The notes beneath the pieces are model-generated. The model worked only from the letters and a program-made list of their open reading frames with translations, was not told the origin of the DNA and did not search any database. From Mollicutes bacterium Phil14 (GTDB taxonomy: Bacteria; Bacillota_I; Bacilli_A; ML615J-28; CAG-698): a stretch of 64,000 nt of DNA. The DNA is taken from positions 35,393 to 99,392 of the forward strand of contig MSHB01000022.1 of NCBI GenBank assembly GCA_001940985.1. Direction: 5' to 3'. The position numbers and the translations under genes are program-made. This document shows positions 11,977-63,165 of the stretch, one piece after another; the first letter of the stretch is position 1, and every line of letters starts with the position of its first letter.

Positions 11977-12680
11977 TCAGTGTCCCAAGGGGTTTTTTCC
12001 AAATCCCAATTATTTTGTGCCCCATCATAATATTGTACTGCTTCGATAATAAATCCAATTTGAAGAAAATATCTACTATCTCTAGTACCAAACATTTTAT
12101 CCGAATAATATTCTTTAATTAAAGGAATTACTAAAGGAGAACTTTCATTAACTCTCTTTACTTTTTCCATACAATAAATAAAGCCATCTTTTTCTCTATT
12201 ATCATAAAATAGGCCACTACTAGATGATTTAAAATTATAATTAAAATCTGTATACCCATCTTGTACAACAGCTAATTCACGAGTAACATCTCCAGTTTTA
12301 TAAAGTAAAGTAAGCTGTTCATATGTAGCAACTCTAAAATATGTATCAACATCACTATATACTTCAACATCAACTCTAAAATTTTCAGCAAAATATATAT
12401 CATCACGAGCAGATATATTAATCTTCACAACTCCAGTTTTAGTAAAATCACTATCTCCTAAATCAGCAGTATAATAAACGGGATCATATATATTACCATC
12501 CTTTTCAAAATAGGTTTTTAATCTTACCTTAACAGTCCCAATGACATACTCTTTATTTTCATTAATTCTACTAGTAATATAAGCAACTGTAGTGCCTACA
12601 AATAGCAAAAAGAATAGTACAATAGCACCAAACATTACTGCCTTTTTAAATCTTAATTTATTTATAATCAAAACAGTCAC
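11970..12680 (-). CDS. Secreted protein with a SipW-cognate-type N-terminus (TasA/camelysin-like paralog).
   Basis: 236 aa. N-terminal basic region, hydrophobic helix, then GTTVAYITS (compare TasA GGGTWAAFND and CalY GGGTFAYFSD). Overlaps the giant gene start. Confidence 0.5.
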   Translation of the reverse strand: MTVLIINKLRFKKAVMFGAIVLFFLLFVGTTVAYITSRINENKEYVIGTVKVRLKTYFEKDGNIYDPVYYTADLGDSDFTKTGVVKINISARDDIYFAENFRVDVEVYSDVDTYFRVATYEQLTLLYKTGDVTRELAVVQDGYTDFNYNFKSSSSGLFYDNREKDGFIYCMEKVKRVNESSPLVIPLIKEYYSDKMFGTRDSRYFLQIGFIIEAVQYYDGAQNNWDLEKTPWDTDW

Positions 12681-12767: not shown

Positions 12768-13268
12768 TCATTCATCCTTTTGATGTGTTTTTAACAATTT
12801 GTATAATGAATTAAACAAAATCACTAGTACAACAATTATTGCTATTGACAATATAACGAAAGGATTTCTAATAAAATTTATTATAAATCCTAATATAGGA
12901 ATTGAAAAAGCATATATACCTTTTACTTGGCTAGCCTTTATTGGGGCATCATTAGCACTATTTTCATCTATACCTTTAGTTATTATTATATCTTTTTCTT
13001 TATCATAACTAATAACTCGATGAGTAACTGCCTTTCCATCTTCTCTTTCATAAGTTATAATAGTATCATTTTTTATTACGTCATAAACATCACTTTCAGA
13101 AATCTTTTTATAATACATAAGCGAACCTGTATAAATACGTGGTTCCATACTACCTGAAAGTACAATTTTTGCGCGATAATTACATATGTATAATCCTAAA
13201 GAAAATACTATTATAACTGCAAAAAGTCCTATTAATATATATTCAACAATATTTATTACTTTTTTCAT
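12768..13268 (-). CDS. sipW: Signal peptidase I, SipW (ER/archaeal) type.
   Basis: 166 aa. N-terminal TM, catalytic Ser box VLSGSMEP (near-identical to the Bacillus subtilis SipW box), a His box (THRVIS) and a C-terminal TM anchor. Confidence 0.8.
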   Translation of the reverse strand: MKKVINIVEYILIGLFAVIIVFSLGLYICNYRAKIVLSGSMEPRIYTGSLMYYKKISESDVYDVIKNDTIITYEREDGKAVTHRVISYDKEKDIIITKGIDENSANDAPIKASQVKGIYAFSIPILGFIINFIRNPFVILSIAIIVVLVILFNSLYKLLKTHQKDE

Positions 13269-13278
13269 TTTTACTTAT

Positions 13279-13881
13279 CTATTTTGCAAGCCCTGTTGTA
13301 AAATCAATATTTGCCATATTTTCCCATAAAACATATTCTGCTTGTTTTCCTTCAACTACAATAGTAATTGTATATGATTTCCCAGAATAATCATTTCCTA
13401 CTTTGCTTCCATCAAAAGTCATATTTACATTAAAATTTAAAACATCACCAACAGAAGGAACTGTAGCAGCACTAATATTAGCACTATCATCAGTTAATGA
13501 AGTAGGTTTTCCTTTATAATACCAGTAATCACCATCATTTACCCAATCAGAATTTTCATCAAAAGTTATTTCAACTATATCAGTTATTAAATCTGTTTTA
13601 TCTTTTTCAGTAACAGTTATTTTCACTCTTACGTTTGTAGCTACAGTTGATTTATTAGTAATAGTAATAGCATCAGCATTAAAAAGAGGTTGACCAGGTA
13701 CTACTATACTATCACTATTAATATTAAACTGACATTCGTAATTAACATCACCCATAACAAAGTTAATGTTTGAAGTCTTTGTGTCTGTTAACCATGCTAG
13801 AGTTGTTGCTACAAGACCAGCAAGCAAAACAACAATAGCACCACTTAAAAGTATAATTTTCTTTTTTAAATTCTTTTTCAT
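13279..13881 (-). CDS. TasA/camelysin-like secreted protein (SipW-cognate signal peptide).
   Basis: 200 aa. N-terminus ...LLAGLVATTLAWLTDTK. The C-terminal strand TIVVEGKQAEYVLWEN resembles the TasA C-terminal FSFEATQWNG. Confidence 0.6.
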   Translation of the reverse strand: MKKNLKKKIILLSGAIVVLLAGLVATTLAWLTDTKTSNINFVMGDVNYECQFNINSDSIVVPGQPLFNADAITITNKSTVATNVRVKITVTEKDKTDLITDIVEITFDENSDWVNDGDYWYYKGKPTSLTDDSANISAATVPSVGDVLNFNVNMTFDGSKVGNDYSGKSYTITIVVEGKQAEYVLWENMANIDFTTGLAK

Positions 13882-13892
13882 ATTTTTTCCTC

Positions 13893-14501
13893 CTAAGAAA
13901 TATCTATGGCAAAACCTAATTCATTCCATTCAACATAATCTTTTTGTTTTGCTTGAAAAGCTATTTTTATTATTAATTTTACATTTCTGTTTCCCATATT
14001 ACCATAGTTGTCACCATTAACACTTAAACTTTCTAGTACCGTGATACTTGTGCTTTCAGAACCCTTTATTACACTACCACTAATACTATCGCCATCAATA
14101 ATTCCACCATAATACCAACATCCTTTAAAATAAACCCAATCATCACCAATACTAGCTTTTATTTGTTGATTATTGGTATCATCAAATCCATTCCACTTCT
14201 CATTATCAATTGGACTATTTGCATCAGTAACAAATTGATAAAAAAGTTGAAACCTTATTTCAGAATCCACACTACTATGATTTGTTAGTATATATGGGTC
14301 ATTAATCAATGGTTTTTCAGGAACAATATAATCTTGTTCACATAAATTACCAACCAAATCATAACGAACTTCTCCACTAACAAAAACAATAGAGCTACTT
14401 CTTCTTAAAGAAATAAGCCATGCATATGAAGATGTGGCAAGCGTTATAGCTAAAATGAAAAGTGCTATTATGCTAATCAAACTTTTAGCATTTCTTTTCA
14501 T
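13893..14501 (-). CDS. TasA/camelysin-like secreted protein. It is the first gene downstream of c-di-GMP riboswitch copy A.
   Basis: The ORF track gives 13893..14534, but the first 11 codons would lie inside the riboswitch aptamer. An internal ATG at 14501-14499 is preceded by GGAGGA (MKRNAKSLISII...). N-terminus ...LAITLATSSYAWLISLRR. C-terminal IKIAFQAKQKDYVEWN. Confidence 0.6.
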   Translation of the reverse strand: MKRNAKSLISIIALFILAITLATSSYAWLISLRRSSSIVFVSGEVRYDLVGNLCEQDYIVPEKPLINDPYILTNHSSVDSEIRFQLFYQFVTDANSPIDNEKWNGFDDTNNQQIKASIGDDWVYFKGCWYYGGIIDGDSISGSVIKGSESTSITVLESLSVNGDNYGNMGNRNVKLIIKIAFQAKQKDYVEWNELGFAIDIS

Positions 14502-14502
14502 A

Positions 14503-14600
14503 CAATCCTCCGTTTTCTGGCGACTGGCTGTCATACACTAATTAGCTTCAGACCCTATAGTTTTGCGTCATCACTTTTCAGTGATTTTGCCTTTTTCTTT
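14503..14600 (-). promoter_or_regulatory. c-di-GMP-I (GEMM) riboswitch, copy A.
   Basis: Minus-strand RNA AAGGCAAAAUCACUGAAAAGUGAUGACGCAAAACUAUAGGGUCUGAAGC...GACAGCCAGUCG. It has GGCAAA, a perfect 6-bp hairpin capped by a GAAA tetraloop, then GACGCAAAaCUAUAGGG (receptor-like). This matches the Vc2 pattern GGCAAACCAUUCGAAAGAGUGGGACGCAAAGCC. About 75% identical to copy B at 23141-23215. Confidence 0.8.
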
Positions 14601-15242
14601 TTTTATATCCTCAAGTATTTTTTTCCTGATTTTTTCTCTTTCTGCTTCAATAAATTTTTGTTTTTCTTCATCATTTTTCTTATTTTGACTAGCGATTTTT
14701 TCCTCTTTAACCGCTATAAACATTTTTCCTATTTCAATGATTAAAAGAAAGAAAAACAATAACATTAAAATTAAAAATATTAAACTTCTGTGATTTGCAA
14801 TTAAACCACCAATTTTAAACAGTGTTAAAACCTTAACAACTTTTCCCACATAATTTTCCTTAGTAACAAACTCTGTATCAAAAGTACTATTATTAACACC
14901 TTTCATAATAAACGAACCATCTAAATTAACATCAACAATTCTATGAACTATATATATCTTATTGCTTTTTGAATAATAAATAATATCATCACCAATTGTT
15001 AATTTTTCAAATGGCACTTCTTTTGAAAGAATGAAATCACCTTCATTTATTACAGGTTCCATTGAATCAGTTGGTACAACCGAATATATATAACCAAATA
15101 TTTTTGTAGGTTTGTTGTTTTTATAAGCATTAATTCCAACGATTATTATGGCAATAGCCAAAACAAACAATAAACAAGTAAATATCCCTAAGCATTTGCT
15201 GATGATACTTTTTACTTTAGGTTCTTTCATACTATTCACCAA
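14571..15242 (-). CDS. SipW-type signal peptidase I paralog with a C-terminal TM and a charged tail.
   Basis: 223 aa. N-terminal TM, VVPTDSMEPVINEGDFIL Ser box, IVHRIVDV His box, then a second TM (LIFLILMLLFFFLLII) and a K/E-rich tail. The last about 10 codons overlap the riboswitch A aptamer. Confidence 0.7.
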   Translation of the reverse strand: MVNSMKEPKVKSIISKCLGIFTCLLFVLAIAIIIVGINAYKNNKPTKIFGYIYSVVPTDSMEPVINEGDFILSKEVPFEKLTIGDDIIYYSKSNKIYIVHRIVDVNLDGSFIMKGVNNSTFDTEFVTKENYVGKVVKVLTLFKIGGLIANHRSLIFLILMLLFFFLLIIEIGKMFIAVKEEKIASQNKKNDEEKQKFIEAEREKIRKKILEDIKKEKGKITEK

Positions 15243-16017
15243 TACTATTATCTATTATCAAATTTTTAATAACTAATCTTTGATTAGAATAAAACCTGCC
15301 ATCAAAAGATATATCACTAGGAATAATATCTTGATATATACTAGGAAAAATGGGTTCTGGTTGAAACTTTACTGTAAAATATAGCACTACATTTTTGCCA
15401 GCTTCTAATTTAAAATCTTTTAGTAAATAATAATTAGTTAAATCCTCGCCTTCACTATTAATAGTGTTAAAGTATGTAAATTCAGGACTAATCATACTAT
15501 TAGTTGTAATCTTTTTCCATCCCCATTCCTCAATTTTTTCATCGCTTGGAACAGTGATTAATTCATTTTCTTTTTCTTTTATTTCTGTTTTATACGGAAC
15601 TTCAACAAGCAAATCGCATCTATAACTATATGAATATTGTATCTTTTCATAGGCATTTTGATAATCACTTGTAAAGACTCCATCATTAAATCTTTCAGAA
15701 TGCAAATCAGAAAAATAAACATTTAAATTACAAACATCTTTACTTGTATTAGAAAGTATCAAAAGAAATATATTCATCTCTCCTGGCATCGCTTTTTCAG
15801 CAGTATAAGTATCAGATTGAATAATATTGTTACCTATAACTTGTGAGAACTGATATTCATAACCGTTTTCTCCAACACTAGCCACAAAGCTAGCACTATT
15901 ACTTTTAACAGTTACAAACCAAGCATAACCAACACTAACAAAAGCTATTAAAGATAATATGCATGAAAACAAGGCCATTAAAAACATTTTATTTTTAAAC
16001 ATTTTTCTCATCACCAT
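15232..16017 (-). CDS. TasA/camelysin-like secreted protein (SipW-cognate N-terminus).
   Basis: 261 aa. N-terminus ...LIAFVSVGYAWFVTVKSN. Overlaps neighbours at both ends. Confidence 0.55.
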   Translation of the reverse strand: MVMRKMFKNKMFLMALFSCILSLIAFVSVGYAWFVTVKSNSASFVASVGENGYEYQFSQVIGNNIIQSDTYTAEKAMPGEMNIFLLILSNTSKDVCNLNVYFSDLHSERFNDGVFTSDYQNAYEKIQYSYSYRCDLLVEVPYKTEIKEKENELITVPSDEKIEEWGWKKITTNSMISPEFTYFNTINSEGEDLTNYYLLKDFKLEAGKNVVLYFTVKFQPEPIFPSIYQDIIPSDISFDGRFYSNQRLVIKNLIIDNSIGE

Positions 16018-18010
16018 TTTGGTCCTTATTCATTAGTTTAATTAATTTATCTTTATTTTTGCTTTTTTCTTCGTTAGCTTTTTCAATTTCTTTTTGTTTC
16101 AATTCTTTTCTAACTTTTTCTGTTTGTGAGCGAGATTTTTCTTTTTCTTTCAACTTAAATTCTTTAATTTTTTTATCTTGAATTTCTTTTTGTTTTAATT
16201 TCTTTTCTTTTTTAGCCTTTAAGATTTTATCTAAATTAGCTTTTTCCAAAGCAATAATATCATTAACTTTCTTTGAATGAGCAGCTTGCATTTCTTTAAT
16301 TTTTTGTTTAGTTCTTTCTTTTTCATTTTTACTAATTTCACGCATCTTCTCTTTCAAAGTATCATTTATTAGTTTAAGACTATTCTTTGAGTCTTCCTTA
16401 GCCTTAACAACCTTTATTTTTTTACCATCTAAAGTTACCACACTAGAAGTAGCTTTAGCCTTAGCTTTTTTGTATATATCTATTTCTTTATCTAAATTAT
16501 TCTTAACTTCAAAAATAGCATCTTCATTGGTTTTTCCTTCTAAACTTTTAATAAGTTTAGTACTGGCTTTAGCCATATCTTTATTAAGACGTTTCTCAAG
16601 TCGAATTGCATTGTTATAATCAACTTCTTTTACTTCTCTAATTATCTTAGCAATTTGAGCTTTCTTTTTCGTTTCATCAAACTCTTCTTTAGGATCAACA
16701 TCCTTAACAAGTCTTGTAAATATATCTTCGTCTTCTAATTCAAAATATGATTGATATAAAGCATTAGATATATTATTCACCATGCGAATTGCTTGCTTTA
16801 ATGCAACTTCATCACTTGATGCTGTTTTTTTAAATTCATCTATGTTTTTCTTAAACATATTTTTATATTGTTTTAAATAATATTCATTTATACTATTATC
16901 TTCCTTAGAAAGTACTTCTGGATTAGTGATGATATCATCTTCATTTTTCTTAATCTGTTTAGCACTTTTCTTAATTGTCTTTTCATCACTCTTACCATCA
17001 AACTTTGTCTTTCTAACTGATTCATTAGCCTCACTAGAAAGATAGGCAAGCATTGCTGTTTGATTAAATCCATGTTCTATTTTTTTATCTATTTTTTTGT
17101 TCTTTTCTTTTACTATCAAATCATATGCCAACTTATTATATTTATCTAAAAACAACCACAACATATAGCAATTTTTAAAATCAGGATTTTTCATAATAAT
17201 ATTTGTTTGCATAATTGGAGGATTAACTTTAGGGGCATTAATCAATTTCTTGTATAACTCGGAATTTTTATATGCCATTATCATACGATTTAATTTTTCA
17301 ACACGCTTTAGTAAATATAAATTATTTTTTTCGTTTTGACTATTAACAGTTTTCTTGATTACCACATCAACATTTATATTTACCGAAGCATTGTTAATGT
17401 TAAAGTCAGACGATATATTAACATGATTTTTGTTTGATGATAAAACATTATCTTTAATAACATTGTATCTGTTATTTACAAAAACAAACAATCTATCTAT
17501 CAATGTTTTAATAAATCTATTTTCATAAATTGAGAATTCTTGTTCCGCATAACTTGTTAAAATCTTTTTGGGAATTACGTAATTTCCATCTCTTACTTCT
17601 TTTACAAAATGTGTATGTGAAGCAAGATGTCTTACTGATTCAGAATTAATTTTCTTAGCCTTTTCAACAGGAACTATTTCTTGCTCATATCTGATTCCTG
17701 TTTTAGGAGTGTTTGCAATCTTATCAATACTTGGAAAATATGATTCTAATGTTTTTATCCATTCTTCATCAAAAACTTTTGTTTCAATAATATCTTTTTG
17801 ATATATAACTCTATCACCAGATAAATATGAATCATAGAAAAGTTTGGCAAAAGCACTATCCACTTCTAATTCATCTAAATTAGTAGAAACTGTCTCAAAA
17901 TATTCATCTATATCCAAATCATCTGAATTTAAATCTAAAGGAGTTGCCTCACTTTCTTCTTTTTCTTTTTCGTTAACAAAGATATCGTCCATAGCAACCT
18001 CCTTAAACAA
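15995..18010 (-). CDS. 671-aa acidic, coiled-coil protein. Partner of the adjacent McrB-family NTPase. Function unknown.
   Basis: Acidic N-terminus (DLNSDDLDIDEYFE), a central globular region and an extremely K/E-rich predicted coiled-coil C-terminal half. No signal peptide. It sits 6 nt downstream of the AAA_5 gene. Confidence 0.6.
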   Translation of the reverse strand: MFKEVAMDDIFVNEKEKEESEATPLDLNSDDLDIDEYFETVSTNLDELEVDSAFAKLFYDSYLSGDRVIYQKDIIETKVFDEEWIKTLESYFPSIDKIANTPKTGIRYEQEIVPVEKAKKINSESVRHLASHTHFVKEVRDGNYVIPKKILTSYAEQEFSIYENRFIKTLIDRLFVFVNNRYNVIKDNVLSSNKNHVNISSDFNINNASVNINVDVVIKKTVNSQNEKNNLYLLKRVEKLNRMIMAYKNSELYKKLINAPKVNPPIMQTNIIMKNPDFKNCYMLWLFLDKYNKLAYDLIVKEKNKKIDKKIEHGFNQTAMLAYLSSEANESVRKTKFDGKSDEKTIKKSAKQIKKNEDDIITNPEVLSKEDNSINEYYLKQYKNMFKKNIDEFKKTASSDEVALKQAIRMVNNISNALYQSYFELEDEDIFTRLVKDVDPKEEFDETKKKAQIAKIIREVKEVDYNNAIRLEKRLNKDMAKASTKLIKSLEGKTNEDAIFEVKNNLDKEIDIYKKAKAKATSSVVTLDGKKIKVVKAKEDSKNSLKLINDTLKEKMREISKNEKERTKQKIKEMQAAHSKKVNDIIALEKANLDKILKAKKEKKLKQKEIQDKKIKEFKLKEKEKSRSQTEKVRKELKQKEIEKANEEKSKNKDKLIKLMNKDQNGDEKNV

Positions 18011-18015
18011 AACAA

Positions 18016-19572
18016 TTAGCTATTTTTAATAAAATTTTGAATACAATTAATACTTTCTAAGCAAGTATTTTTACCAAACAATTTGTCAAGTAAAGTAATT
18101 AATTGATTTAATTCTTCATGTAAGAAACTTAAATTTAAAGTTTCAAATTTTCTTATAACTTTATATGCCAAAAAGTAATCTAAACCTTGAACATCAGTTC
18201 CACCACACGCTACATAAACTGGAACAAATGTATTAATTTGTTTCATAATACGATTACCAAAAGTTATCTTAAACTCTTTAGTAATAAATTCATCTAGTTT
18301 TTGAATCTTTTCCACTAATTTCGCATCAAGTGGATATGCTTTTATTCCTTCTTGAAAAAGGTGCTCCATATATTCATAATTCATATTAACATTTTCTGTG
18401 TATGGTGCATCAATTAATTCAGCACGGGCATCCATTTCAATAGTTGTTGCACGATCATAAACTTTATCAGTAATTGTAAATGTTGAATCATCACGGTTAG
18501 CTGTACCAACAAACCAAACATTTTGAGGAATCAATAATTTTCCATCAACTAGTTTCTTAGGATCATTTGCTAAAGTATCTGGAACCAAATCTATTTTCCA
18601 TTCATTCTTATCTGGCATTTCCATTATTGATAAAAACTCAGCAAAATAATACTCAATTCTAGCTAAATTCATTTCATCTAAAATAATGAAATTCATATCA
18701 TCGCGATAGCTAGTTTCATAAACAGCTTTCAAAAAATCAGTTTCATTAAACTTTTTAGTGAATTCATTCAAATATCCAATTAACTCAGTTCTATCTCTCC
18801 ATGAAGGTTGAACAGAACAAATTGCCGCATCGTTTTTAAAAAACTTTCCCATCGCATACGGTAAAGATGTTTTACCAGTACCAGATATACCTTGTAAAAT
18901 CAAAATTTTGCTTGTGGCAAGTCCAGCGAAATATGCTCTAATAACTTTTTTATCATAATACAAATGTAATTGTGACGCTGAAAAATTAATAAATCTATTA
19001 ACTAATTCTTGTAAATTAAGCATATCATCAGGTCCCATCATAATTGATGTAATCTTTGTTTTGTATTCTTCATCAACAGCACTAAGTTTAATAAATCTTA
19101 AATCGCTAACAACTTTTTTGTCTTTAGACATTTCATTAGTAAGATTTTCTTCATCACTTTTTTCAGAATAATTATTCACACCACCAAGACCTAAATTAGA
19201 AACCTTTAATGCTAAAATCTTATTCTTTTCATCAATCAATTCTGCAGTCTTAGTATTTAATTGTGATACTTCTTCTAATAAGTCATCTTTCTCTATTTCT
19301 CTTCTTACAAATCTAACATATCTTCTAAGAATTTGGAAAATTCTCAAACCTAAGAAAATAAAGAAAGCAACTATTATAAGCATTGTAATAATTTCACAAA
19401 TCCAATCAAGAGCATTAAACTCATTACTGCCATTGATTAAATCTTCAAAATAACTAACAATATCTTTAAAAAATGCATGAGAAAATGCCTCCCATAATCT
19501 TACAAAGAACATCTTGAAATTATAGAAAAATGTTCTTAAAAAACCTATGAAATACCTAGCGAAGTTTACCAT
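18016..19572 (-). CDS. Membrane-anchored McrB-family (AAA_5) GTPase/ATPase.
   Basis: 518 aa. N-terminal TM (ITMLIIVAFFIFLGLRIF). Walker A ILQGISGTGKTS. McrB-type Walker B with NxxD region FIILDEMNLARIEYYFAEFL (compare McrB IDEINRANxxxxFGEL). Sensor motif VWFVGTANRDDSTFTITDKVYDRATTIEM (compare McrB IIGTMNTADRS). Confidence 0.7.
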   Translation of the reverse strand: MVNFARYFIGFLRTFFYNFKMFFVRLWEAFSHAFFKDIVSYFEDLINGSNEFNALDWICEIITMLIIVAFFIFLGLRIFQILRRYVRFVRREIEKDDLLEEVSQLNTKTAELIDEKNKILALKVSNLGLGGVNNYSEKSDEENLTNEMSKDKKVVSDLRFIKLSAVDEEYKTKITSIMMGPDDMLNLQELVNRFINFSASQLHLYYDKKVIRAYFAGLATSKILILQGISGTGKTSLPYAMGKFFKNDAAICSVQPSWRDRTELIGYLNEFTKKFNETDFLKAVYETSYRDDMNFIILDEMNLARIEYYFAEFLSIMEMPDKNEWKIDLVPDTLANDPKKLVDGKLLIPQNVWFVGTANRDDSTFTITDKVYDRATTIEMDARAELIDAPYTENVNMNYEYMEHLFQEGIKAYPLDAKLVEKIQKLDEFITKEFKITFGNRIMKQINTFVPVYVACGGTDVQGLDYFLAYKVIRKFETLNLSFLHEELNQLITLLDKLFGKNTCLESINCIQNFIKNS

Positions 19573-19599
19573 AATTTATCCTCTTTCAAGAAGAAATAA

Positions 19600-20391
19600 T
19601 TACTCTTTTATTTCTTCATTTTTTTCTTTTTTTTCCAATTCTGCTAGAAGTTCAGCACGCATCTTTTCTTTTTCATTTTCTAATTCAGCTTTAATGCGAG
19701 CAAGTTCATCTTCATGTTCCTTCATCATTGTTTCTTTATTCTTATGATTTTTAATTCTTAAAAAATTCATTACAAGCATTATTGCTTCAAAAACAAAGAA
19801 CAATGCCGTTGGCAATACTATACAAAGCAAGAATCCATTTGATGTTTGCAAGAACTTCATTGTATTGCCTGCACCAGTCCATTTACCAGTATAAACAGCT
19901 TTAATATCTTCATATGATATAGTTTCAAATTTAGCACTACTTAAGTTATCAGGATCATATTTGTATGCAGGGTTCATAGCATATTTATCACCTTGAGTTC
20001 TTATATATTGCTTACCATCACTACCTGTAGAAAAATCTACAATTCTGTGGGTATTAAGAATTGTTCTTCCTATCTCATCAGAATAATAGGCAAATGTAAC
20101 TATATCTCCAATTTCTAATTTACTAACTATTTTTTCTCTATTTTTTTCAGTTATAACTTTAACAAAGATTAAATCTTTTGGAGTAAATGAATCTTCTTCT
20201 TCTCCATCCATTGACGAAGTTTGAACTGTTAAATATCCTTTACCAAAAATACTTGGAATATCTAATTCAGTCTTCATTCCTAAATTACTAATTGAAAATA
20301 TTAATAATATTGCAACGAATAGATAAAACACACAATTCAATACAACACTAACAACCTCCCACCATTTTTTTTCTTTTTTCTCTTCTAACAT
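19600..20391 (-). CDS. Divergent SipW-type signal peptidase paralog with a C-terminal TM and coiled-coil tail.
   Basis: 263 aa. N-terminal TM, Ser box YLTVQTSSMDGEEED (the SM is retained but the usual EP is replaced by DG plus an acidic insert), His box NTHRIVDF, then a TM and a K/E-rich coiled coil. Confidence 0.6.
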   Translation of the reverse strand: MLEEKKEKKWWEVVSVVLNCVFYLFVAILLIFSISNLGMKTELDIPSIFGKGYLTVQTSSMDGEEEDSFTPKDLIFVKVITEKNREKIVSKLEIGDIVTFAYYSDEIGRTILNTHRIVDFSTGSDGKQYIRTQGDKYAMNPAYKYDPDNLSSAKFETISYEDIKAVYTGKWTGAGNTMKFLQTSNGFLLCIVLPTALFFVFEAIMLVMNFLRIKNHKNKETMMKEHEDELARIKAELENEKEKMRAELLAELEKKEKNEEIKE

Positions 20392-20419
20392 ATTGTCCTC
20401 TTTCTAAAACGAAGTTTTA

Positions 20420-20454
20420 TGTATAACAGAGGCAATTAAATGCTTCTGTTATAC
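20420..20454 (-). promoter_or_regulatory. Intra-operon stem-loop (13-bp stem) between the TasA-like genes and the downstream SipW paralog.
   Basis: Minus-strand GUAUAACAGAAGC-AUUUAAUU-GCCUCUGUUAUAC with one mismatch. No U-tract follows, so it is a candidate partial terminator, attenuator or processing site. Confidence 0.35.
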
Positions 20455-20478
20455 ATATTTAATTTTTAAAATATTTTA

Positions 20479-21381
20479 TTAATTTTCACCTAATGTTAAA
20501 CCTAATTTTACTGATAAAATTTGTTTGTATAATGCGTTAATGCAATCATAATCATATCCTTCAAGCCATACAATTACTGTAACTTTTGTAGCTGTTTTTG
20601 AAACAGTACCTAATTTTATATCAGCAGTTCCATTAATTGCTTGTGTAGTATAATTAGTTGAAGCAGGAATATTTGTACTAGTAATTTCAGTTCTAGCCTT
20701 TAAGTAGCCCATTGCTCCAGTTGTATCAGTGTTTGTTTGTAATCCGGCTGTATTATCATTTTGGCCAGCGCCTTTTTCTAAAATAACAGCAGTATTAGTT
20801 CCTAATTTCACCATAACTCTAGCGGCGTTACTAACTTTAAATTTTTCTGTTGCTGTACCTTGCTTAATATCATCACCAACAGTCTTATCAGGTGTCCAAG
20901 AAGAGTTATTACCAGCACCTTCAGTAATTAAAGAATTTGATAAATCTAAATATAATTCTTCTGTATCTTTAGAAGAATCTTGAGCTAATCTAACAGAAAA
21001 TTCTAATTTTAAAATACCAGCAGTTCCTAATATATCTTTAGCATCAGCTAAAGTTCCAATATCAGTTAATGATGCAGATTTTTTTACTGAATCAATTGCA
21101 AATTTTTTAAATTTGCCGTCATTATATGTAACATCGTTAAATGAAACAAAGTTTGCGCTCTTTAAATTAGTGAAATCATCAGAAGTGATTGAAGTTTTCC
21201 AATTAGTATCATCTATACTTACTTCAATACTTCCATCACCAGCTTTAACGCTACCTTCAAATGGATCTACAGAAGCAGTTCTACTTACTACTAACCATGC
21301 ATAAGTACTTGTTCCTAATGCTATAACTGCAAATGCTACAGCAAGACATGCAATAAATAATTTTCTTGATAATTTTTTCAT
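20479..21381 (-). CDS. TasA/camelysin-like secreted protein.
   Basis: 300 aa. N-terminus ...AVIALGTSTYAWLVVSRTAS. The C-terminal VIVWLEGYDYDCINALY motif is shared with the 329-aa and 232-aa paralogs. Confidence 0.6.
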   Translation of the reverse strand: MKKLSRKLFIACLAVAFAVIALGTSTYAWLVVSRTASVDPFEGSVKAGDGSIEVSIDDTNWKTSITSDDFTNLKSANFVSFNDVTYNDGKFKKFAIDSVKKSASLTDIGTLADAKDILGTAGILKLEFSVRLAQDSSKDTEELYLDLSNSLITEGAGNNSSWTPDKTVGDDIKQGTATEKFKVSNAARVMVKLGTNTAVILEKGAGQNDNTAGLQTNTDTTGAMGYLKARTEITSTNIPASTNYTTQAINGTADIKLGTVSKTATKVTVIVWLEGYDYDCINALYKQILSVKLGLTLGEN

Positions 21382-21411
21382 TTCTCTTTTTTCCTTTCAA
21401 ATTTTTAATCA

Positions 21412-22401
21412 TTAATAAGTTTTTTTAGGGGAATAACTTGAACCCATAAATTTTAATTGAACCATTACATTATCTGCAAATATTGCATTAAAGCAATCTG
21501 CATCCCAACCTTCAAGCCATATGTTAACTTTTACTTTTGCTACGTAACTTGGTGTGCCGTCACTATTTATAACTTTTTGAAACCTTGCACACATTGAATC
21601 ATCAGTTTTTGCCTCATATGGATTTTTAAATGTTGTTAGAGAATACTTGGTGTTTGGATATTCTTTAGGAGGATTAAGAATAGTCAATCTTTTTGAATAA
21701 TACTCAAAAGCTCCTGTTTGTACTCCATAACCCATTTTTTCATTTTCACTCGGATCATAAATAATCGAAAGCAAATCTTCTTTTTCATTAACACCAAACT
21801 CATTTTCCAAATTTTCTTCTATGATTGCAATTCTTATTGCGTTTGCAGCATAGTAAGACCCAATTGAACCCTTTTTTATATCTTCTTCTCCATAAGAGAA
21901 GTCAATATCAGATACCCATTTAACCCCCTTCGACACAACAAATGTACCATCAACTTTTTTTGTTTTTGCAATTTCATATGTTATTTCATGACTAACATTA
22001 TCCACCAAAAACAATTCTTTACTTGTTGGATTATCTGTTTTAAACCATAAATCAAAAGATATATAATTATCTTTAGCATCCTTGATTTCTTCACCTTGTT
22101 TAGTAAAGAATTTCTTTCCATCAAGCGAAGTAACATTATATAACTTCGGATTTTTACCAATGATTTTTTCTAAATCTTCTTGTTTTAAACATTCAGAATA
22201 ATTCTTTCCATCAAGTGATACATAAAAACCCGATTCCGCTATAACATTAAGTTGTGCATCTTCAAGTAGCGCTTCATTACTCAATGTTATCCAAGCAAAT
22301 GTTGCTTGACTAAATGCTAAAAACGAAAACATTACTGCGAAAAGTGAAAAATAAAATTTTCTTGTTATATTTTGAATTATATTATTTTTCATCTTTCTCA
22401 C
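21412..22401 (-). CDS. TasA/camelysin-like secreted protein.
   Basis: 329 aa. N-terminus ...FLAFSQATFAWITLSNE. C-terminal VNIWLEGWDADCFNAIF. Confidence 0.6.
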   Translation of the reverse strand: MRKMKNNIIQNITRKFYFSLFAVMFSFLAFSQATFAWITLSNEALLEDAQLNVIAESGFYVSLDGKNYSECLKQEDLEKIIGKNPKLYNVTSLDGKKFFTKQGEEIKDAKDNYISFDLWFKTDNPTSKELFLVDNVSHEITYEIAKTKKVDGTFVVSKGVKWVSDIDFSYGEEDIKKGSIGSYYAANAIRIAIIEENLENEFGVNEKEDLLSIIYDPSENEKMGYGVQTGAFEYYSKRLTILNPPKEYPNTKYSLTTFKNPYEAKTDDSMCARFQKVINSDGTPSYVAKVKVNIWLEGWDADCFNAIFADNVMVQLKFMGSSYSPKKTY

Positions 22402-23080
22402 CAGAATCGATTGCTGAGAATTTCATTTGAATCTTAATCTGACCACCTAATATATCACTTGTTGTATCAGGATCTTGACCTTCTAGCCACATAAATACTG
22501 TATATTTTATTACTTGGTCAGGAAAGAAACCATAAATCTTATCACGCATTATCAATCTTTCATTAACAAATTCTAAACAATCAGGGATATCTTCATACTG
22601 TGCTTCTTTATCATCTTTTGCCATAAATAACATTTCTCGAGAGACACCATCAATTTCTGTAATCACCATAAACCTTATTGCTTTATCAACATTTTTCTTA
22701 ACAGAAGTTATTTGAACATAATAACGCAAATCCGTTGACTGACTACCAAAATTTTTAACATAGAAAGTATATGCCAAATATTTAAAATTTGGATCATTAT
22801 AACTTCCTTCTGCTTTCTTAGCTTCTTCAATATTTAGCATCGTGTATGTTATATCTCTAGCATCGTAAACCGCATCAGCTTGTATTAAAGAGCTAGGATT
22901 AATAAAATCTTTAGTCTGTGACATATATATTTGTTTTTCTTTTAAGTCAGGATCAATTGACATAACAAAATTACCAACATTAGATCCATAAAATGTTAAT
23001 ACTGCAATTATAACTAGTGCTATTCCAAAAACAGTTATTCCCATTTGAAGAAACTTTTTATTCTTAAAAAATGCATTCAT
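22382..23080 (-). CDS. Secreted or anchored protein of the same paralog family (shared C-terminal motif). It is the first gene downstream of riboswitch copy B.
   Basis: 232 aa. N-terminal TM. C-terminal YTVFMWLEGQDPDTTSDILGGQIKIQMKF aligns with the IWLEGWDxDC motif of the 300- and 329-aa paralogs. GAGGTGGTGAG ribosome-binding site. Confidence 0.5.
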   Translation of the reverse strand: MNAFFKNKKFLQMGITVFGIALVIIAVLTFYGSNVGNFVMSIDPDLKEKQIYMSQTKDFINPSSLIQADAVYDARDITYTMLNIEEAKKAEGSYNDPNFKYLAYTFYVKNFGSQSTDLRYYVQITSVKKNVDKAIRFMVITEIDGVSREMLFMAKDDKEAQYEDIPDCLEFVNERLIMRDKIYGFFPDQVIKYTVFMWLEGQDPDTTSDILGGQIKIQMKFSAIDSGEKDEK

Positions 23081-23087
23081 TATGTCT

Positions 23088-23217
23088 CACCACCTCACTT
23101 GAAACAAAAAAGCCAGAAATCTCCACAAAAAATTTGAGATAACTGGCTACCATTTCAGGCCCTATAGCTTTGCGTCACAACCTTTCGATTGCTTTGCCTT
23201 TAACATATACGCTTATT
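23088..23217 (-). promoter_or_regulatory. c-di-GMP-I (GEMM) riboswitch, copy B, with a terminator-type expression platform.
   Basis: Minus-strand aptamer AAAGGCAAAGCAAUCGAAAGGUUGUGACGCAAAGCUAUAGGGCCUGAAAUGGUAGCCAGUU. It contains GGCAAA, a hairpin with a GAAA loop and GACGCAAAGCUAUAGGG. Then comes the hairpin GCCAGUUAUCUC...GGAGAUUUCUGGC followed by UUUUUUGUUU. The terminator's 5' arm overlaps the aptamer's 3' end. Confidence 0.85.
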
Positions 23218-23243
23218 ATACTATGTTTTGGGCTATTTGTCAA
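23215..23243 (-). promoter_or_regulatory. Near-consensus sigma-A promoter (TTGACA, 17 nt, TATAAT) driving riboswitch B and its operon.
   Basis: Minus-strand TTGACAaatagcccaaaacatagTATAAT. The riboswitch GGCAAAG begins about 16 nt after the -10 element. Confidence 0.7.
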
Positions 23244-23280
23244 GAAACACTTACATATTCTCAACATATTTTTCCTACTT

Positions 23281-24753
23281 TTAATCTTCTTCAGTAGTTT
23301 CAATATTTTCTTCTTTCATAATTGGAGAAATTAAGCTCTTTAAACTTCCTTCATTATTAATGTAATTTACTACATCTTCTTGAGGAAGAGGTTTAGAAAA
23401 ATAAAATCCTTGAGCGTATTCAATACCAAATTTTTTAATTTTTTCAACTAATTCGTAGTTTTCTATTCCTTCACAAATAATAAATTTGTTACTGCTTTTA
23501 GCCAAATCTACTAATAGTTCTATATACTTATCTTGAATGAAAGACTCCTCATAGTCAAAAAAAGTTTTATCTAATTTAATAATATCTATAGGAGAATTAC
23601 CTAGTTTTACTAATGTCTTTTGATCAAGACCAACACCATCAACTGCTACTTTGAAACCAAGTTCTTTTAAGTCATTAATATTTTTATATACTATTTCATG
23701 ACGTTCAAACATCGCAAACTCAGCAATTTCAATTGTAATTGCATTAACTGGTATTTTATACTTTTTAGCAACATTTTGGAAAGTAACACCTAAGTTTTCA
23801 CTCACTAATTGTTTGGGGCTTAAATTAAATGATAATTGTAAATTTTTATGAATAAATTGCTTTTTAAGTTCGATATACTCTCTTATCAAAGCTTCAATTC
23901 CCCATATACCAACACCATTAATATCACCTGACTGTTCTAAAATATTAATAAAACTACCTGGATATAAAATACCTAGAGTTGGATGCTTCCACCTAAGCAG
24001 TGCTTCAAATCCATAAATATTATTTTCAGAAATGTTGATAATTGGCTGATAATATAAACAAAATTGATGTTCTTTTATCGCTTGTTTAATTTCATAATAC
24101 AATTGTAAATTTTCAGTATCATTTTTATCGCATTCATCACTATAAATAGTTACATTATTTCCACCACTATTTTTACAATTGAAAACAGCTAAATCTAAAC
24201 TTTTCATTAATTGCTTTAAATTGTGTCCATGATTAGGATAGAAGGCAACACCCACACTTATAGTTGGATTAATGATTGTATCAGAATATATCTTTATATC
24301 AACAGATGCCGCCTCACAAATTTTATTGGCACACTTTAAAACTTCATTTTTATCATAATCTTCTTTAACTAATATTAGAAACCTATCGTCACTAATTCTA
24401 CCAATTAAAGTCCTATTAGGTAAAACACTTCTAATATTTTTAATACTCTCATTTAGTACCTTTTTTCCATTTCCTTCACCAAAAGCATTTTGGATTTCTG
24501 TCATCTTATCATAATCAATCAAAATTAGAGAAAAGAACATATCACTAGGTAATTTGCTAATATAACTGTTTATTGAAGATATTATTTCATTTCTCTTTAA
24601 TACTCCTTCAACAAGACCCGCAACTTCGTTGTGATAATTATGTTTTTCCTTTTTCACTTTAATATATAGTAAAACACCTAAACCGGCTATTATCAATAGA
24701 GCAATCACTGAAAATAAAACATATGCTCCACTATTCCAATTTGCTAAAAACAT
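23281..24753 (-). CDS. Membrane-anchored protein with a degenerate GGDEF domain and an EAL domain. Possible c-di-GMP phosphodiesterase or c-di-GMP-binding regulator.
   Basis: 490 aa. N-terminal TM. The GGDEF position reads RISDDRF (degenerate). The EAL domain has YYQPIINIS...GFEALLRW, but the DDFGTG metal-binding motif reads DGVGLD, so its activity is uncertain. Confidence 0.75.
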   Translation of the reverse strand: MFLANWNSGAYVLFSVIALLIIAGLGVLLYIKVKKEKHNYHNEVAGLVEGVLKRNEIISSINSYISKLPSDMFFSLILIDYDKMTEIQNAFGEGNGKKVLNESIKNIRSVLPNRTLIGRISDDRFLILVKEDYDKNEVLKCANKICEAASVDIKIYSDTIINPTISVGVAFYPNHGHNLKQLMKSLDLAVFNCKNSGGNNVTIYSDECDKNDTENLQLYYEIKQAIKEHQFCLYYQPIINISENNIYGFEALLRWKHPTLGILYPGSFINILEQSGDINGVGIWGIEALIREYIELKKQFIHKNLQLSFNLSPKQLVSENLGVTFQNVAKKYKIPVNAITIEIAEFAMFERHEIVYKNINDLKELGFKVAVDGVGLDQKTLVKLGNSPIDIIKLDKTFFDYEESFIQDKYIELLVDLAKSSNKFIICEGIENYELVEKIKKFGIEYAQGFYFSKPLPQEDVVNYINNEGSLKSLISPIMKEENIETTEED

Positions 24754-24773: not shown

Positions 24774-27347
24774 TTATTTCTTGTAATTATATTTTTCTAT
24801 TAATTCTAAAGCGTCTTCATAAGGAACAGCTTTACTAATTAAGAAACCTTGAATTACTTCACATCCATTTTTCTTTAAAAATTGATATTGTTTTTCATCT
24901 TCAACGCCTTCAGCTATTATTTTCATATCTAAACTTATAGCTAAAGATATAATCTTTGAAACAATAATTCTTGAACTTTTATCGGTATTAATATATTTAA
25001 TAAATTCCTTATCTATTTTTATTGCATCAATTGGCAAATCTTTTAAGTATAACATCGAACTATAACCAGTACCAAAATCATCTAAGTGAATTATGAAACC
25101 ATGTTTTTTTAATACTTTCATTTTTTCTGCCATCAGTTTTATATTCTGTACTAAAAAAGTTTCTGTAATTTCTAGAGCTATCATATTAGGATTTACTTTT
25201 TCTTCTTCAGTCATTCCTATCATTTGAGTAACAAAACCATCTTGAATAAGTTGGGCAGGAGAAACATTAATTGAAATTGTTATCCCTTGACCTTCAAGTT
25301 TCTTAGCGATTTGTAAAGCTTGTCTTATTATGATTTTTCCAATAGGAATAATCATATTATTCTTTTCTGCTAATTCAATAAAATGCTGTGGAGAGTCATT
25401 AATATATTTAGGATTATTCCATCTAACCAAGGCTTCAAAACCAATAATCTTTCTATTACTAGCATCACATTGTGGTTGAATATAAACTATCAATTCACCT
25501 TTTTTAATCGCTTTACGTAAATCTTCTTCCATTAATTGTTCTTTTTTTATTAATTTACCTAAACTTATATCATAAATTATATAATCAGAAACATTCAAAC
25601 CTTTAGCTTTTTCAAATGCTATTTCAGCATATTCACAAATTGAATTATTATCTAATCCATCATATTTTTCCATTTCAATATTAAATATACCACTATGACA
25701 TCTAATTATTAAGGCATTAGCATCTATTTCTATAGGTTTTTTCAAAGTGTTTTTTAAATTATTCAACCAACTAATTACATCATTATATGTCTCAAGATTT
25801 TTAAATAATACTGCAAATTTGTCTTTACTTAAACAATATAAAATCATATCTTCTTTTAATAGTTCACTAACTAACTTTACAAAATTTAAAACAAGTTTGT
25901 TAATCATTTTATTACCAAAGATACGAGCATATCTCTCTAATGAATCAATACAAAATACTACTAAAGAACTTTCTATTTTTATTCCATTTTTTAAACTTGT
26001 ATTAACCTTCTCTAAATGTTTTTCTAAGTCCTTTAATAAAACTTCTTTTGTTGGGAGATGAGTAATTTCATCATAACTTATTCTCTTCACAGCATAATTC
26101 ATTTCTTCATATTGCTTTGTTACATCATCACCTATTATATAGTTATTAAATCCTATTTTTAAAGAAACTAAATTTATAACAATATTTTTTCCACTCAAAT
26201 CAACCAAGTGAATCATAAAGTGATTATTTTTTTCTATGTTTTCTAATATGTTACCATCACAATAGCAATCAAAATCCATTATATTCTTATAACTATTCCA
26301 ATCAATATTAAGTTTTTTAAAAGCAGAATTTCTATATATTATTTTTCCTTTTTTGTTAACTCTAAAGATATATGGTTTTGAATAATATAAAGATAATCTA
26401 GAAGATTGGATATCTTCATTTTTCTTAAAGCAGACACCAAATAATACTGCTAGCCCAACAACTAGTATCAATGATAATATCGTTAATAATAAAACTAGTG
26501 GAATAATTAACGATTTTTCGAATCCAACCAACTTTTCTTTATAAAAAACAGATATTAAATAAAAGTACTCACTTTGCTCGTTTATAACAATTTTATTATA
26601 TGTTAAATAACATCTTTGTCCTCGAACATAATAGCTATTATCAACACCTTCACTACCATTGATAATCATATCTATTAATTTTTCTTTATCTGAGTTTGTT
26701 GAAACACTGCTTAAATAATCATCATAGAAATAATCGCCTGTTTCTTTACCATTTTGGAAATATATATATCCATTTTTATTAATCAAAAATGCGTCTGGTT
26801 CATACTCTCGCCTCATACTAAATATGGGCATTAAAAATTCGTCTGCTCTAACAATGGCTACCCTATTATCATTAAAAAAGAATATCGCACATTTGCCTAA
26901 ATCGCAATCAGTAAAGGCATCTGTTAAATCGATTACACTAAATTTTTCATATGTAAAATTAGATAGAGAAAAACCACCTTTTATTTTGTGTGTTGAAGTT
27001 TCCAATATCAAATTCGAATTTTTTATTTCGCCAAATATTATATTTTCACAATTTATTAATTCAACATCATTTATATTTTTATTTAAATCTTTTAAAGTCC
27101 TATCGTGATAAGTGTTATAGAATGCATTTAAAGCCATAATATTATAATCTATTTGACTACTAATTGCATCGCTTGTTGAAAGATTATTTACATAAACTGT
27201 ATTTTCAATTCTTTTATCAATATAACCGTCTAGTATATGTTTGTAAAAGTTGTATGATACACCAATTATACATACAAAAACTAGCAAAAACGAAATGAGC
27301 GAACTAACAATAAACTTTTTCATAAATACCCTCTTAGTACACTGCAT
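24774..27347 (-). CDS. Sensor c-di-GMP phosphodiesterase. It has a periplasmic sensor domain between two TMs, a degenerate GGDEF domain and an active-type EAL domain.
   Basis: 857 aa. N-terminal TM, about 250-aa extracytoplasmic region, second TM, GGDEF-fold region lacking the GGDEF motif, then an EAL domain with YIQPQ...GFEALVRW and canonical HLDDFGTGYSS. Confidence 0.8.
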   Translation of the reverse strand: MQCTKRVFMKKFIVSSLISFLLVFVCIIGVSYNFYKHILDGYIDKRIENTVYVNNLSTSDAISSQIDYNIMALNAFYNTYHDRTLKDLNKNINDVELINCENIIFGEIKNSNLILETSTHKIKGGFSLSNFTYEKFSVIDLTDAFTDCDLGKCAIFFFNDNRVAIVRADEFLMPIFSMRREYEPDAFLINKNGYIYFQNGKETGDYFYDDYLSSVSTNSDKEKLIDMIINGSEGVDNSYYVRGQRCYLTYNKIVINEQSEYFYLISVFYKEKLVGFEKSLIIPLVLLLTILSLILVVGLAVLFGVCFKKNEDIQSSRLSLYYSKPYIFRVNKKGKIIYRNSAFKKLNIDWNSYKNIMDFDCYCDGNILENIEKNNHFMIHLVDLSGKNIVINLVSLKIGFNNYIIGDDVTKQYEEMNYAVKRISYDEITHLPTKEVLLKDLEKHLEKVNTSLKNGIKIESSLVVFCIDSLERYARIFGNKMINKLVLNFVKLVSELLKEDMILYCLSKDKFAVLFKNLETYNDVISWLNNLKNTLKKPIEIDANALIIRCHSGIFNIEMEKYDGLDNNSICEYAEIAFEKAKGLNVSDYIIYDISLGKLIKKEQLMEEDLRKAIKKGELIVYIQPQCDASNRKIIGFEALVRWNNPKYINDSPQHFIELAEKNNMIIPIGKIIIRQALQIAKKLEGQGITISINVSPAQLIQDGFVTQMIGMTEEEKVNPNMIALEITETFLVQNIKLMAEKMKVLKKHGFIIHLDDFGTGYSSMLYLKDLPIDAIKIDKEFIKYINTDKSSRIIVSKIISLAISLDMKIIAEGVEDEKQYQFLKKNGCEVIQGFLISKAVPYEDALELIEKYNYKK

Positions 27348-58704: not shown

Positions 58705-58955
58705 TTTCCTCCAAATAAAAAATCCTTAGAAAATTAATTCTAAGGACGAAATCTTCGCGGTACCACCTTAGTTCAAAATACAAATGTATTTTGCACCTCA
58801 ACTGTAAAATTAACGCTTTTACTTAAACGGACTCTATTAAAGCCACTCCAAGGGTGAATTCATAGGGTTTTTACTATAAGAAATTTCAGCTACATTCTTA
58901 CTCTCTGAAAATAAAAACTAATCTACTACTACTTCCTTATCACAGTATTATATAC
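58705..58955 (-). promoter_or_regulatory. T-box leader (tRNA-Phe-responsive riboswitch) upstream of pheST, with a terminator/antiterminator.
   Basis: The minus-strand leader contains an AG-box (CAGAGAG), a candidate specifier region with UUC (GAAAUUUCUUA) and the conserved T-box sequence AAGGUGGUACCGCG. A terminator hairpin CCUUAGAA-UUAAUU-UUCUAAGG plus UUUUUUAUUU follows. A promoter TTGATT...TATAAT lies at about 58960-58990. Confidence 0.85.
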
Positions 58956-62599: not shown

Positions 62600-63165
62600 T
62601 GTTTTTATCTCCTATCATATATTTTTTTGTATCGATTTAATAATTTTATTTAATAAAGTATTCAATAATATGCGTTAGAAATCTGGTTAATTTAATTTAT
62701 AAACTTAACCAAACAAAAGTGCAGAAGATTATTGTCCCATTAAATAAATAAATTTTTCTTTTTTTAAAAAAATCATTTGCTTCACCACCAACCTATTCTT
62801 TCCAATCTCATTATATCAATATTTACTTTTCTTGTCAAATATATGATTTTTTAAAGTTATATTATCTTTTTTTCACAAATAATTGTATTATAAGAAAAGA
62901 ATTTTTTAACTACAAAATTAAATTAAAATAAGAATTATATATATGCAAGTACTAATAAAGCATTAATAATAAATTTTGAAAAAATAAGTAAAAACTTTGG
63001 TTTTATTAAATAGTATATAAAGGTTGTACTTTTAATGGTTATAACATCATACATTGCTAGTCCCCAACACAACATTATTAATATTGTTATCCATATCTTA
63101 TCTTTTTCTTTGATATTAAATTTTGATATAGTTTTAAAATGTCAATACTTTTTTAAAAAAATAAA

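Follow-up and report, generated by a model that had tools for sequence, protein, structure and literature searches.

What decides whether the secreted-protein genes that begin at position 23080 of this DNA are transcribed? The stretch in question is 64 kb of the Mollicutes bacterium Phil14 contig MSHB01000022.1 (called the window below, meaning the whole stretch that was analysed), and the leader of these genes, whose features all lie on the minus strand, carries an RNA element of the cyclic di-guanosine monophosphate class I family (c-di-GMP-I, also GEMM-I), referred to here as copy B. The comparative and folding data indicate that copy B is almost certainly a GEMM-I aptamer. They further suggest that it very probably works as a c-di-GMP-dependent transcriptional ON-switch that sits close to its promoter and in which aptamer and terminator compete directly for the same bases. 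The leader is laid out as follows.

23215..23243, minus strand: sigma-70-type promoter, with TTGACA at 23243-23238, a 17-nucleotide (nt) spacer and TATAAT at 23220-23215
23135..23208, minus strand: c-di-GMP-I (GEMM-I) aptamer, copy B, Rfam RF01051, 74 nt
23102..23148, minus strand: intrinsic terminator forming the expression platform, with a hairpin at 23148-23111 and a U-tract to 23102
about 23086..23096, minus strand: Shine-Dalgarno region GAGGUGGUGAG (GAGGUGGUGA) 5' of the ATG at 23080, by direct reading of the sequence and with no predicted part in the switch itself
22382..23080, minus strand: first regulated gene (gene 1), 232 amino acids (aa), from the list of open reading frames (ORFs), with an N-terminal transmembrane helix, a beta-sandwich domain and a WLEGQDPD motif

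The identity of the aptamer is established by its covariance scores and its covariation. An Rfam cmscan with RF01051 gives copy B 62.6 bits vs a gathering score of 35 (E 7.4e-10) over model positions 1-87 of 87, that is, at full length, and a covariance model built in this analysis (R1) gives it 82.5 bits. The membership in GEMM-I that an earlier note on this DNA had proposed is thereby borne out, both by a score of nearly twice the gathering score and by covariation in 114 related aptamers; covariation-supported helices, whose absence the note had named as refuting, are present.

The anatomy of copy B can be described relative to Vc2, the structural reference from the Vibrio cholerae tfoY leader, with equivalences drawn from its alignment to the Rfam consensus and the RCCAU vs GUCAU variants among relatives. 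Specifically, G20 of Vc2 corresponds to G23198 and its intercalating adenine A47 to A23171, and the columns of these two ligand contacts are invariant in 114/114 aptamers. The equivalents of G21-C46 (G23197-C23172) and C22-G45 (C23196-G23173) close the first hairpin, a 6-base-pair stem (GCAAUC/GGUUGU, 23192-23177) with a GAAA tetraloop at 23186-23183, which agrees with the GAAA-capped hairpin of the earlier description. Two hairpins flank the GGCAAA...GACGCAAA junction, and the junction GACGCAAAG has A23171 as its first A. The second hairpin (23169-23141) is shortened, with 13 of the consensus positions missing from its distal helix in the Rfam alignment, and its receptor-like strands CCUGAA/AUGG, joined directly at the tip, align with the consensus receptor strands CUAAg/uAuG. 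Copy B thus holds both a GNRA tetraloop and a tetraloop-receptor motif, which may dock with each other. One detail of the earlier description has to be corrected: the segment GACGCAAAGC, there labelled receptor-like, is the J2/3 ligand-binding junction with the A47-equivalent adenine, since this is where the Rfam alignment puts it. Copy B retains every invariant position of the family.

Scored against the GEMM-I structure, a MAFFT alignment of the 114 distinct related aptamers (A2) shows standard pairs in 92.5% of cells vs 79.3% in column shuffles, none of which reaches the observed value (0/500), and pairing drops to 14-44% when the partners are slid by 1-3 columns. Two-sided changes occur in 6/6 pairs of the GNRA-capped helix. 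In the second helix only 1/9 pairs is changed on both sides, and covariation therefore says little about this helix, whose base is nearly invariant.

How could ligand binding to this aptamer be passed on to the polymerase? Immediately behind it lies the intrinsic terminator, whose 5' arm AGCCAGUUAUCUC (AGCCAG-UU-AUCUC, 23148-23136) and 3' arm GAGAUUUCUGGCU (GAGAU-UU-CUGGCU, 23123-23111) enclose a 12-nt loop (23135-23124) and are followed by the U-tract UUUUUUGUUU. The hairpin folds with a free energy of -15.4 kcal/mol (z-score -5.2), and 0/200 shuffles fold as well. A built-in terminator scan of 22500-23800 reported none because it allows only loops of 3-8 nt, which the 12-nt loop exceeds. The hairpin and U-run that the earlier note had placed before the ribosome-binding site and the ATG at 23080 are present at those coordinates, and its proposal that the terminator 5' arm is the end of the aptamer is visible as a physical overlap: bases 23148-23135 are common to both elements. 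The 5' arm is built from the second helix's 3' strand (CCAGUU), two junction nucleotides including the equivalent of Vc2 position 92, and the next three bases. Because it reuses this strand and nucleotides of the ligand site, aptamer and terminator are mutually exclusive.

Folding calculations indicate which of the two states is preferred when no ligand is present. In the minimum-energy fold of the full leader the terminator is formed and the second aptamer helix opened, so that only the first aptamer hairpin is kept. Folding with and without constraint, the comparison suggested in the earlier note, places the terminator state at -26.7 kcal/mol vs -15.4 kcal/mol with the aptamer pairs enforced; the sole hairpin that remains in the enforced case is an AU-rich one of 5 base pairs, 8 nt away from the U-tract. 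In folds of the growing transcript the aptamer is the minimum-energy structure to about nt 92 and is displaced by the terminator at nt 96-98.

These findings suggest the following course of events. The promoter, which the earlier note had described together with an aptamer 16 nt further on, is found exactly as given there and reaches 12/12 in the promoter scan; perfect TTGACA-N17-TATAAT matches number 2 in the window vs 0.26 expected by chance. From spacing only, transcription is predicted to start near A23208, while GGCAAAGC begins at 23198, 16 nt past the -10 box. The polymerase would thus make the 74-nt aptamer first. With c-di-GMP bound, the aptamer would hold on to its three-helix junction and to the second helix's 3' strand (CCAGUU, followed by A-U-C); the emerging GAGAUUUCUGGCU would then have nothing with which to pair its GC-rich base, the U-tract would be preceded by no stable hairpin, and the polymerase would read through into the SipW-peptidase and secreted-protein operon. 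Without ligand, the emerging 3' arm would invade the second aptamer helix and form the AGCCAG-UU-AUCUC/GAGAU-UU-CUGGCU hairpin before UUUUUUGUUU, and transcription would stop about 25-30 nt upstream of the start codon. The ON logic follows from this arrangement, as a ligand-stabilised aptamer precludes the terminator and hence permits read-through. The other perfect promoter match of the window, and the only one besides that of copy B, lies at 62810-62838 on the minus strand.

If the overlap matters, it should be kept in other genomes. The closest relatives were taken from five exact-protein look-ups, and homologues of gene 1 were collected from genomes and metagenomes, the loci being labelled in the style of L001; pattern scans with the gene 1 family alignment contributed 80 genome and 80 metagenome loci. 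In 86/156 loci with enough upstream sequence, 1-4 aptamers lie directly 5' of gene 1 (none in 70 loci, one in 43, two in 19, three in 23 and four in 1), and in 14 tested loci 41/41 aptamers score above the Rfam threshold, at 54-69 bits. A hairpin reaching from the aptamer's AGCCAG to a U-run is found in 100/120 distinct units vs 63/2400 (2.6%) shuffled downstream sequences. Some of the remaining units form their terminator a few bases later (GUUGC or GUUGUC), still overlapping the 3' end of the aptamer. The distal part of the terminator arms shows compensation, with GC/GU/AU at position 9, UA/CG at 10, CG/AU at 11 and AU/UA at 12, and other relatives have stems such as GUCAU/AUGAC, ACCAU/GUGGU and similar pairs. 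Both the distance from the terminator to the ribosome-binding site and the sequence between them vary among orthologous units. The closest relative, L161, whose gene 1 is 80% identical, has two units; the promoter-distal one is orthologous to copy B and shares its AUCUC/GAGAU stem, and the other lies upstream of it. Promoters stand at the equivalent place, 5' of the first aptamer, in L161, L168, L171 and L013. Many genomes of the Acholeplasmatales and Bacilli thus have this design ahead of their orthologue of the operon.

The ON reading is also well supported because the design matches ON-switches that have been proven experimentally. For Bc3, Bc4 and Bc5, in the cspABCDE 5'-untranslated region of Bacillus thuringiensis CT-43, induction of a diguanylate cyclase switches reporters on (Zhou et al. 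2016, PMC4759541), and their terminator uses the ligand-site nucleotide C245, a P1 strand and part of P3 (PMC4759541). Copy B belongs to the same Rfam class, its terminator 5' arm likewise consumes part of the P3 3' strand, ligand-site nucleotides and P1, and both systems control cell-surface or secreted proteins; relatives of the copy B locus are tandem as well, with 2-4 units. They differ in that copy B is a single unit in the window, that the proteins are cell-wall-anchored surface proteins there vs SipW-type peptidases and an unassigned family here, and that Bc4 has C at the ligand site (C245) vs U in copy B; moreover, the second helix of copy B is shortened, and copy B is known from sequence alone. 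Physical overlap, its conservation and the Bc3-5 precedent together support the c-di-GMP ON-switch that the earlier note had claimed, with dependence on the ligand as the predicted part of that claim.

Several observations weigh against this reading. The P1 helix of copy B is weak (AUAUG/CAAAU, with an A-A mismatch and a 2-nt shift from the AUG/CAU of the family), and across the family the short P1 (AAUG/CAUU) is paired in only 71.5% of cells. U23139, in the A-U-C that follows the second helix, aligns with the consensus C that is C92 in Vc2, and the C92U mutation weakens Vc2 in vivo, although the mutant still responds to raised c-di-GMP (bioRxiv 10.1101/617340). The terminator may be leaky because of its UU/UU internal loop and its 12-nt loop. 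Between completion of the aptamer and arrival of the invading strand lie about 12-24 nt, a short window for ligand binding. Finally, binding of the ligand and termination by the copy B RNA are themselves predictions, as are the point at which transcription starts and the efficiency with which it would terminate.

The U at the C92 position deserves particular attention, since it raises the question whether the pocket might be tuned to a different or additional ligand, such as 3',3'-cyclic GMP-AMP (3',3'-cGAMP) with its adenine opposite U92, or bind c-di-GMP with much weaker affinity. Copy B shares this U with most of its relatives: column 91 of A2 holds U in 91/114 aptamers, copy B included, and C in 23/114, while G20 is invariant. 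The register of this column is supported by the minority form R-C-CAU vs the majority form G-U-CAU, in which CAU pairs with the 5' AUG as a short P1. In Vc2, C92 and the ligand's G-beta are Watson-Crick partners (PMC5888326, which also describes the roles of G20 and A47); a G20A/C92U double mutant binds c-di-AMP (PMC7288161), and changes in the G20 pocket turn natural GEMM-I RNAs to c-AMP-GMP (PMC9481103). Against such a shift stands the possible G-U wobble with the ligand, as does the response that the Vc2 C92U mutant retains. G20 and C92 are also less conserved than A47 (PMC9049102), and because the site is known to be variable, its U is no bar to membership in the class. In all close relatives two GGDEF-EAL genes flank the switch, which favours c-di-GMP as the ligand, and no cGAMP synthase was seen near the locus, though none was specifically searched for. 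C92U is reportedly a common natural variant that still binds c-di-GMP by wobble. On balance, a pocket tuned to another ligand or of much weaker c-di-GMP affinity is very unlikely, and an altered specificity or a raised c-di-GMP threshold is about as improbable. Copy A, a second GEMM-I aptamer of the window, has the canonical C at the C92-equivalent position.

A related and more far-reaching idea, for which the prospects are only slim, is that the G20/U92 pocket, found in copy B and about 80% of the aptamers of this operon family, marks a distinct GEMM-I subclass gating an undescribed SipW-processed fibre system. If this were so, the subclass might have a high c-di-GMP threshold, sharpened by the 2-4 tandem units of relatives, or it might accept 3',3'-cGAMP; the gated system would comprise jelly-roll WLEGxDxDC subunits, an AAA-type ATPase and a DUF2357 protein and would be widespread in Acholeplasmatales-like bacteria.

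Could copy B instead be an OFF-switch, or have translation or RNA stability, not transcription termination, as its main target? Many class I switches are OFF, among them Vc2, an off-switch that affects RNA stability (bioRxiv 10.1101/617340), and the minimum-energy fold of the full copy B leader also pairs its extreme 5' end with bases beside the start codon. Folding of the leader reveals no separate anti-terminator, however, and the Shine-Dalgarno sequence is not paired with aptamer sequence; the terminator competes with the aptamer directly, which is ON logic, and terminator and U-run are kept in 83% of orthologous units, whereas neither spacing nor sequence is conserved from the terminator to the ribosome-binding site. 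OFF or translational control was rejected on the absence of an anti-terminator and of Shine-Dalgarno pairing, and we regard it as highly improbable. The least credible proposal is that the overlap is incidental, with a constitutive terminator or attenuator of the upstream EAL-gene transcript beside an aptamer that is a decaying relic: the upstream gene, which ends at 23281, does lack its own terminator before the copy B promoter, P1 is weak, and L161 has two units vs one in the window, but the hairpin is preceded by a perfect promoter and by an aptamer that keeps all invariant family positions at 62.6 bits, and the overlap recurs in 100/120 units across lineages with only 30-45% protein identity.

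With a c-di-GMP ON-switch as the favoured reading, what would it control? Downstream of gene 1, the remainder of the putative operon (14571..22401, minus strand) was delineated by Pfam and NCBIfam matches, a shared motif and conserved gene order; one transcription unit of eight genes is inferred from the short same-strand gaps.

21412-22401 and 20479-21381, minus strand: two paralogous secreted proteins
19600-20391, minus strand: SipW-like signal peptidase (SipW E 2e-10, archaeal-type signal peptidase I E 3e-8, below both curated cut-offs)
18016-19572, minus strand: AAA-type ATPase, 518 aa, with a P-loop (Walker A GISGTGKTS)
15995-18010, minus strand: DUF2357 protein, 671 aa, with a long Lys/Glu-rich tail
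15232-16017, minus strand: further protein with a SipW-type signal
14571-15242, minus strand: second SipW-like peptidase (TIGR02228, 81 bits, above cut-off)

The earlier note had spoken of an exoprotein operon, and this is broadly right, given the SipW-type peptidases and SipW-type signal peptides. The C-terminal motif W-[LI]-E-G-x-D-x-[DE]-(C), in the shared form WLEGxDxDC, occurs in the paralogues 22382-23080, 21412-22401 and 20479-21381, and the N-terminal motif G-T-x-T-[FY]-A-W-[LFI]-T occurs on several operon proteins and is kept in 73 orthologues. The gene 1 and gene 3 families, the latter carriers of SipW-type signal peptides, are related to each other at an hhalign probability of 98% (E 1.5e-13); neither has a Pfam match or a sequence relative in the PDB. 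An AlphaFold2 model of the gene 1 product has a mean pLDDT (predicted local distance difference test) of 89.7. Pfam, NCBIfam and PADLOC searches with the operon proteins gave no TasA/camelysin match, and their matches are limited to the SipW-type peptidases, one TIGR04088, DUF2357 and a candidate-defence model for the ATPase. That a fibre or matrix is made here is a reasonable, if unproven, inference. The structures listed beside the gene 1 and gene 3 families are the AbpA bundling pilin (7ueg), the TasA fibre (8aur), the Sulfolobus acidocaldarius 0406 filament (7pnb) and CanX (9h8b). The 518-aa ATPase matches the PADLOC candidate-defence model PDC-M26A (E 7e-38), and the pair of ATPase and DUF2357 protein is kept inside the secreted-protein operon in L161, L165, L168, L171 and L007.

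The order of the operon genes is kept in L161, L162, L165, L168, L171 and L007. From the window to Mariniplasma, at about 40% protein identity, synteny takes in the pair of GGDEF-EAL genes, the leader and gene 1, then two paralogues, the SipW-like peptidase, the ATPase (~515 aa) and the DUF2357 protein (~660 aa). Relatives of the family of gene 1 and its paralogues are encoded in 487 genome and 414 metagenome stretches; those of the 232-aa gene 1 product itself come from metagenomes and metagenome-assembled genomes (MAGs) only. The pattern-scan loci belong mostly to Acholeplasmatales, 'Tenericutes', Bacilli MAGs, Mariniplasma and the cultured Peloplasma aerotolerans, whose strain M4Ah (L009) has two units, and more distant relatives of gene 1 occur in Clostridia. 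Among the papers of the library that was searched, none mentions both c-di-GMP riboswitches and Acholeplasma.

As an RNA, copy B is an ordinary further example, because its class, its mechanism and the type of function that it regulates all have precedents; the RNA class, the ON-switch design and the tandem use are already published, and copy B adds nothing new to RNA biology. With Vc2 it shares the three-helix aptamer, the GNRA tetraloop, the GGCAAA...GACGCAAA core and the equivalents of G20 and A47, whereas Vc2 lacks an intrinsic terminator, is an OFF-switch or an element of RNA stability (bioRxiv 10.1101/617340), carries C92 where copy B has U and has a longer P3. The interest lies rather in the context, namely the secreted-protein operon, the U92 pocket and the up to four tandem units. 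The riboswitch would tie an eight-gene, nearly unassigned operon to the c-di-GMP signal to 'settle down', and this link probably extends to a second cluster behind copy A. The hypothesis that emerges is that the operon makes a matrix or fibre at high c-di-GMP, in a family spread over hundreds of Acholeplasmatales, Bacilli and Clostridia genomes.

Among known tandem riboswitches, c-di-GMP-I aptamers that each have their own terminator form the commonest arrangement; 347 doublets and 12 triplets are on record (Sherlock et al. 2022, PMC9481103). Relatives of copy B fit this picture as doublets and triplets of independent aptamer-terminator units, the 'pseudo-cooperative' type, while the window copy is a singlet and L013 has four units, a number that the survey, which names c-di-GMP-I doublets and triplets only, does not mention. 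In L013 (5457-5910; MAG Acholeplasmataceae bacterium SMBSF03, JAIOQX010000003.1), four complete tandem aptamer-terminator units follow one promoter before the gene 1 orthologue. In three further loci (L136 2361-2543, L137 737-900 and L154 5710-5886) two GEMM-I aptamers stand 0-6 nt apart with no terminator between them, and in L136 and L137 a single terminator-like hairpin follows the second; such back-to-back aptamers may form dual-aptamer, single-platform switches and not independent tandem switches. Short-read contigs end inside an aptamer just 5' of gene 1 in L162-L167, L097, L083 and L125. Assemblies probably break at repeated riboswitch units, and tandem copy numbers in such data would therefore be underestimated.

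Further features of the window surround the switch.

23281-24753 and 24774-27347, minus strand: GGDEF-EAL proteins directly upstream of copy B, an arrangement conserved in relatives
14516-14601 (flanks 14495-14610), minus strand: GEMM-I copy A, 70.5 bits
13893-14501, 13279-13881, 12768-13268, 11970-12680 and 4327-11976: second cluster behind copy A, the last gene encoding a 2549-aa protein

Both upstream proteins have degenerate GGDEF signatures (SDDRF and SKDKF). The 857-aa one keeps EAL and DDFGTG and for this reason is probably an active phosphodiesterase; the 490-aa one keeps EAL, with VDGVGLD in place of DDFGTG. In L168 and L171 a further GEMM-I riboswitch precedes the GGDEF-EAL pair. The same was looked for before the pair in the window, where there is a terminator and a promoter only and no GEMM-I. 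The start of copy A lies within the final codons of the SipW-like ORF 14571-15242, and copy A has no terminator within its flanks (14495-14610); a GGAGG and the likely true start, the ATG at 14501, follow within about 15-20 nt downstream. Copy A might regulate translation, or might serve the second cluster as an internal checkpoint. Behind it, a 200-aa paralogue (13279-13881) passes TIGR04088, the model for SipW-dependent signal peptides, and a third SipW-like gene is present. Elsewhere in the window, a T-box leader lies at 58739-58952 on the minus strand, with 104.8 bits vs a gathering score of 93.

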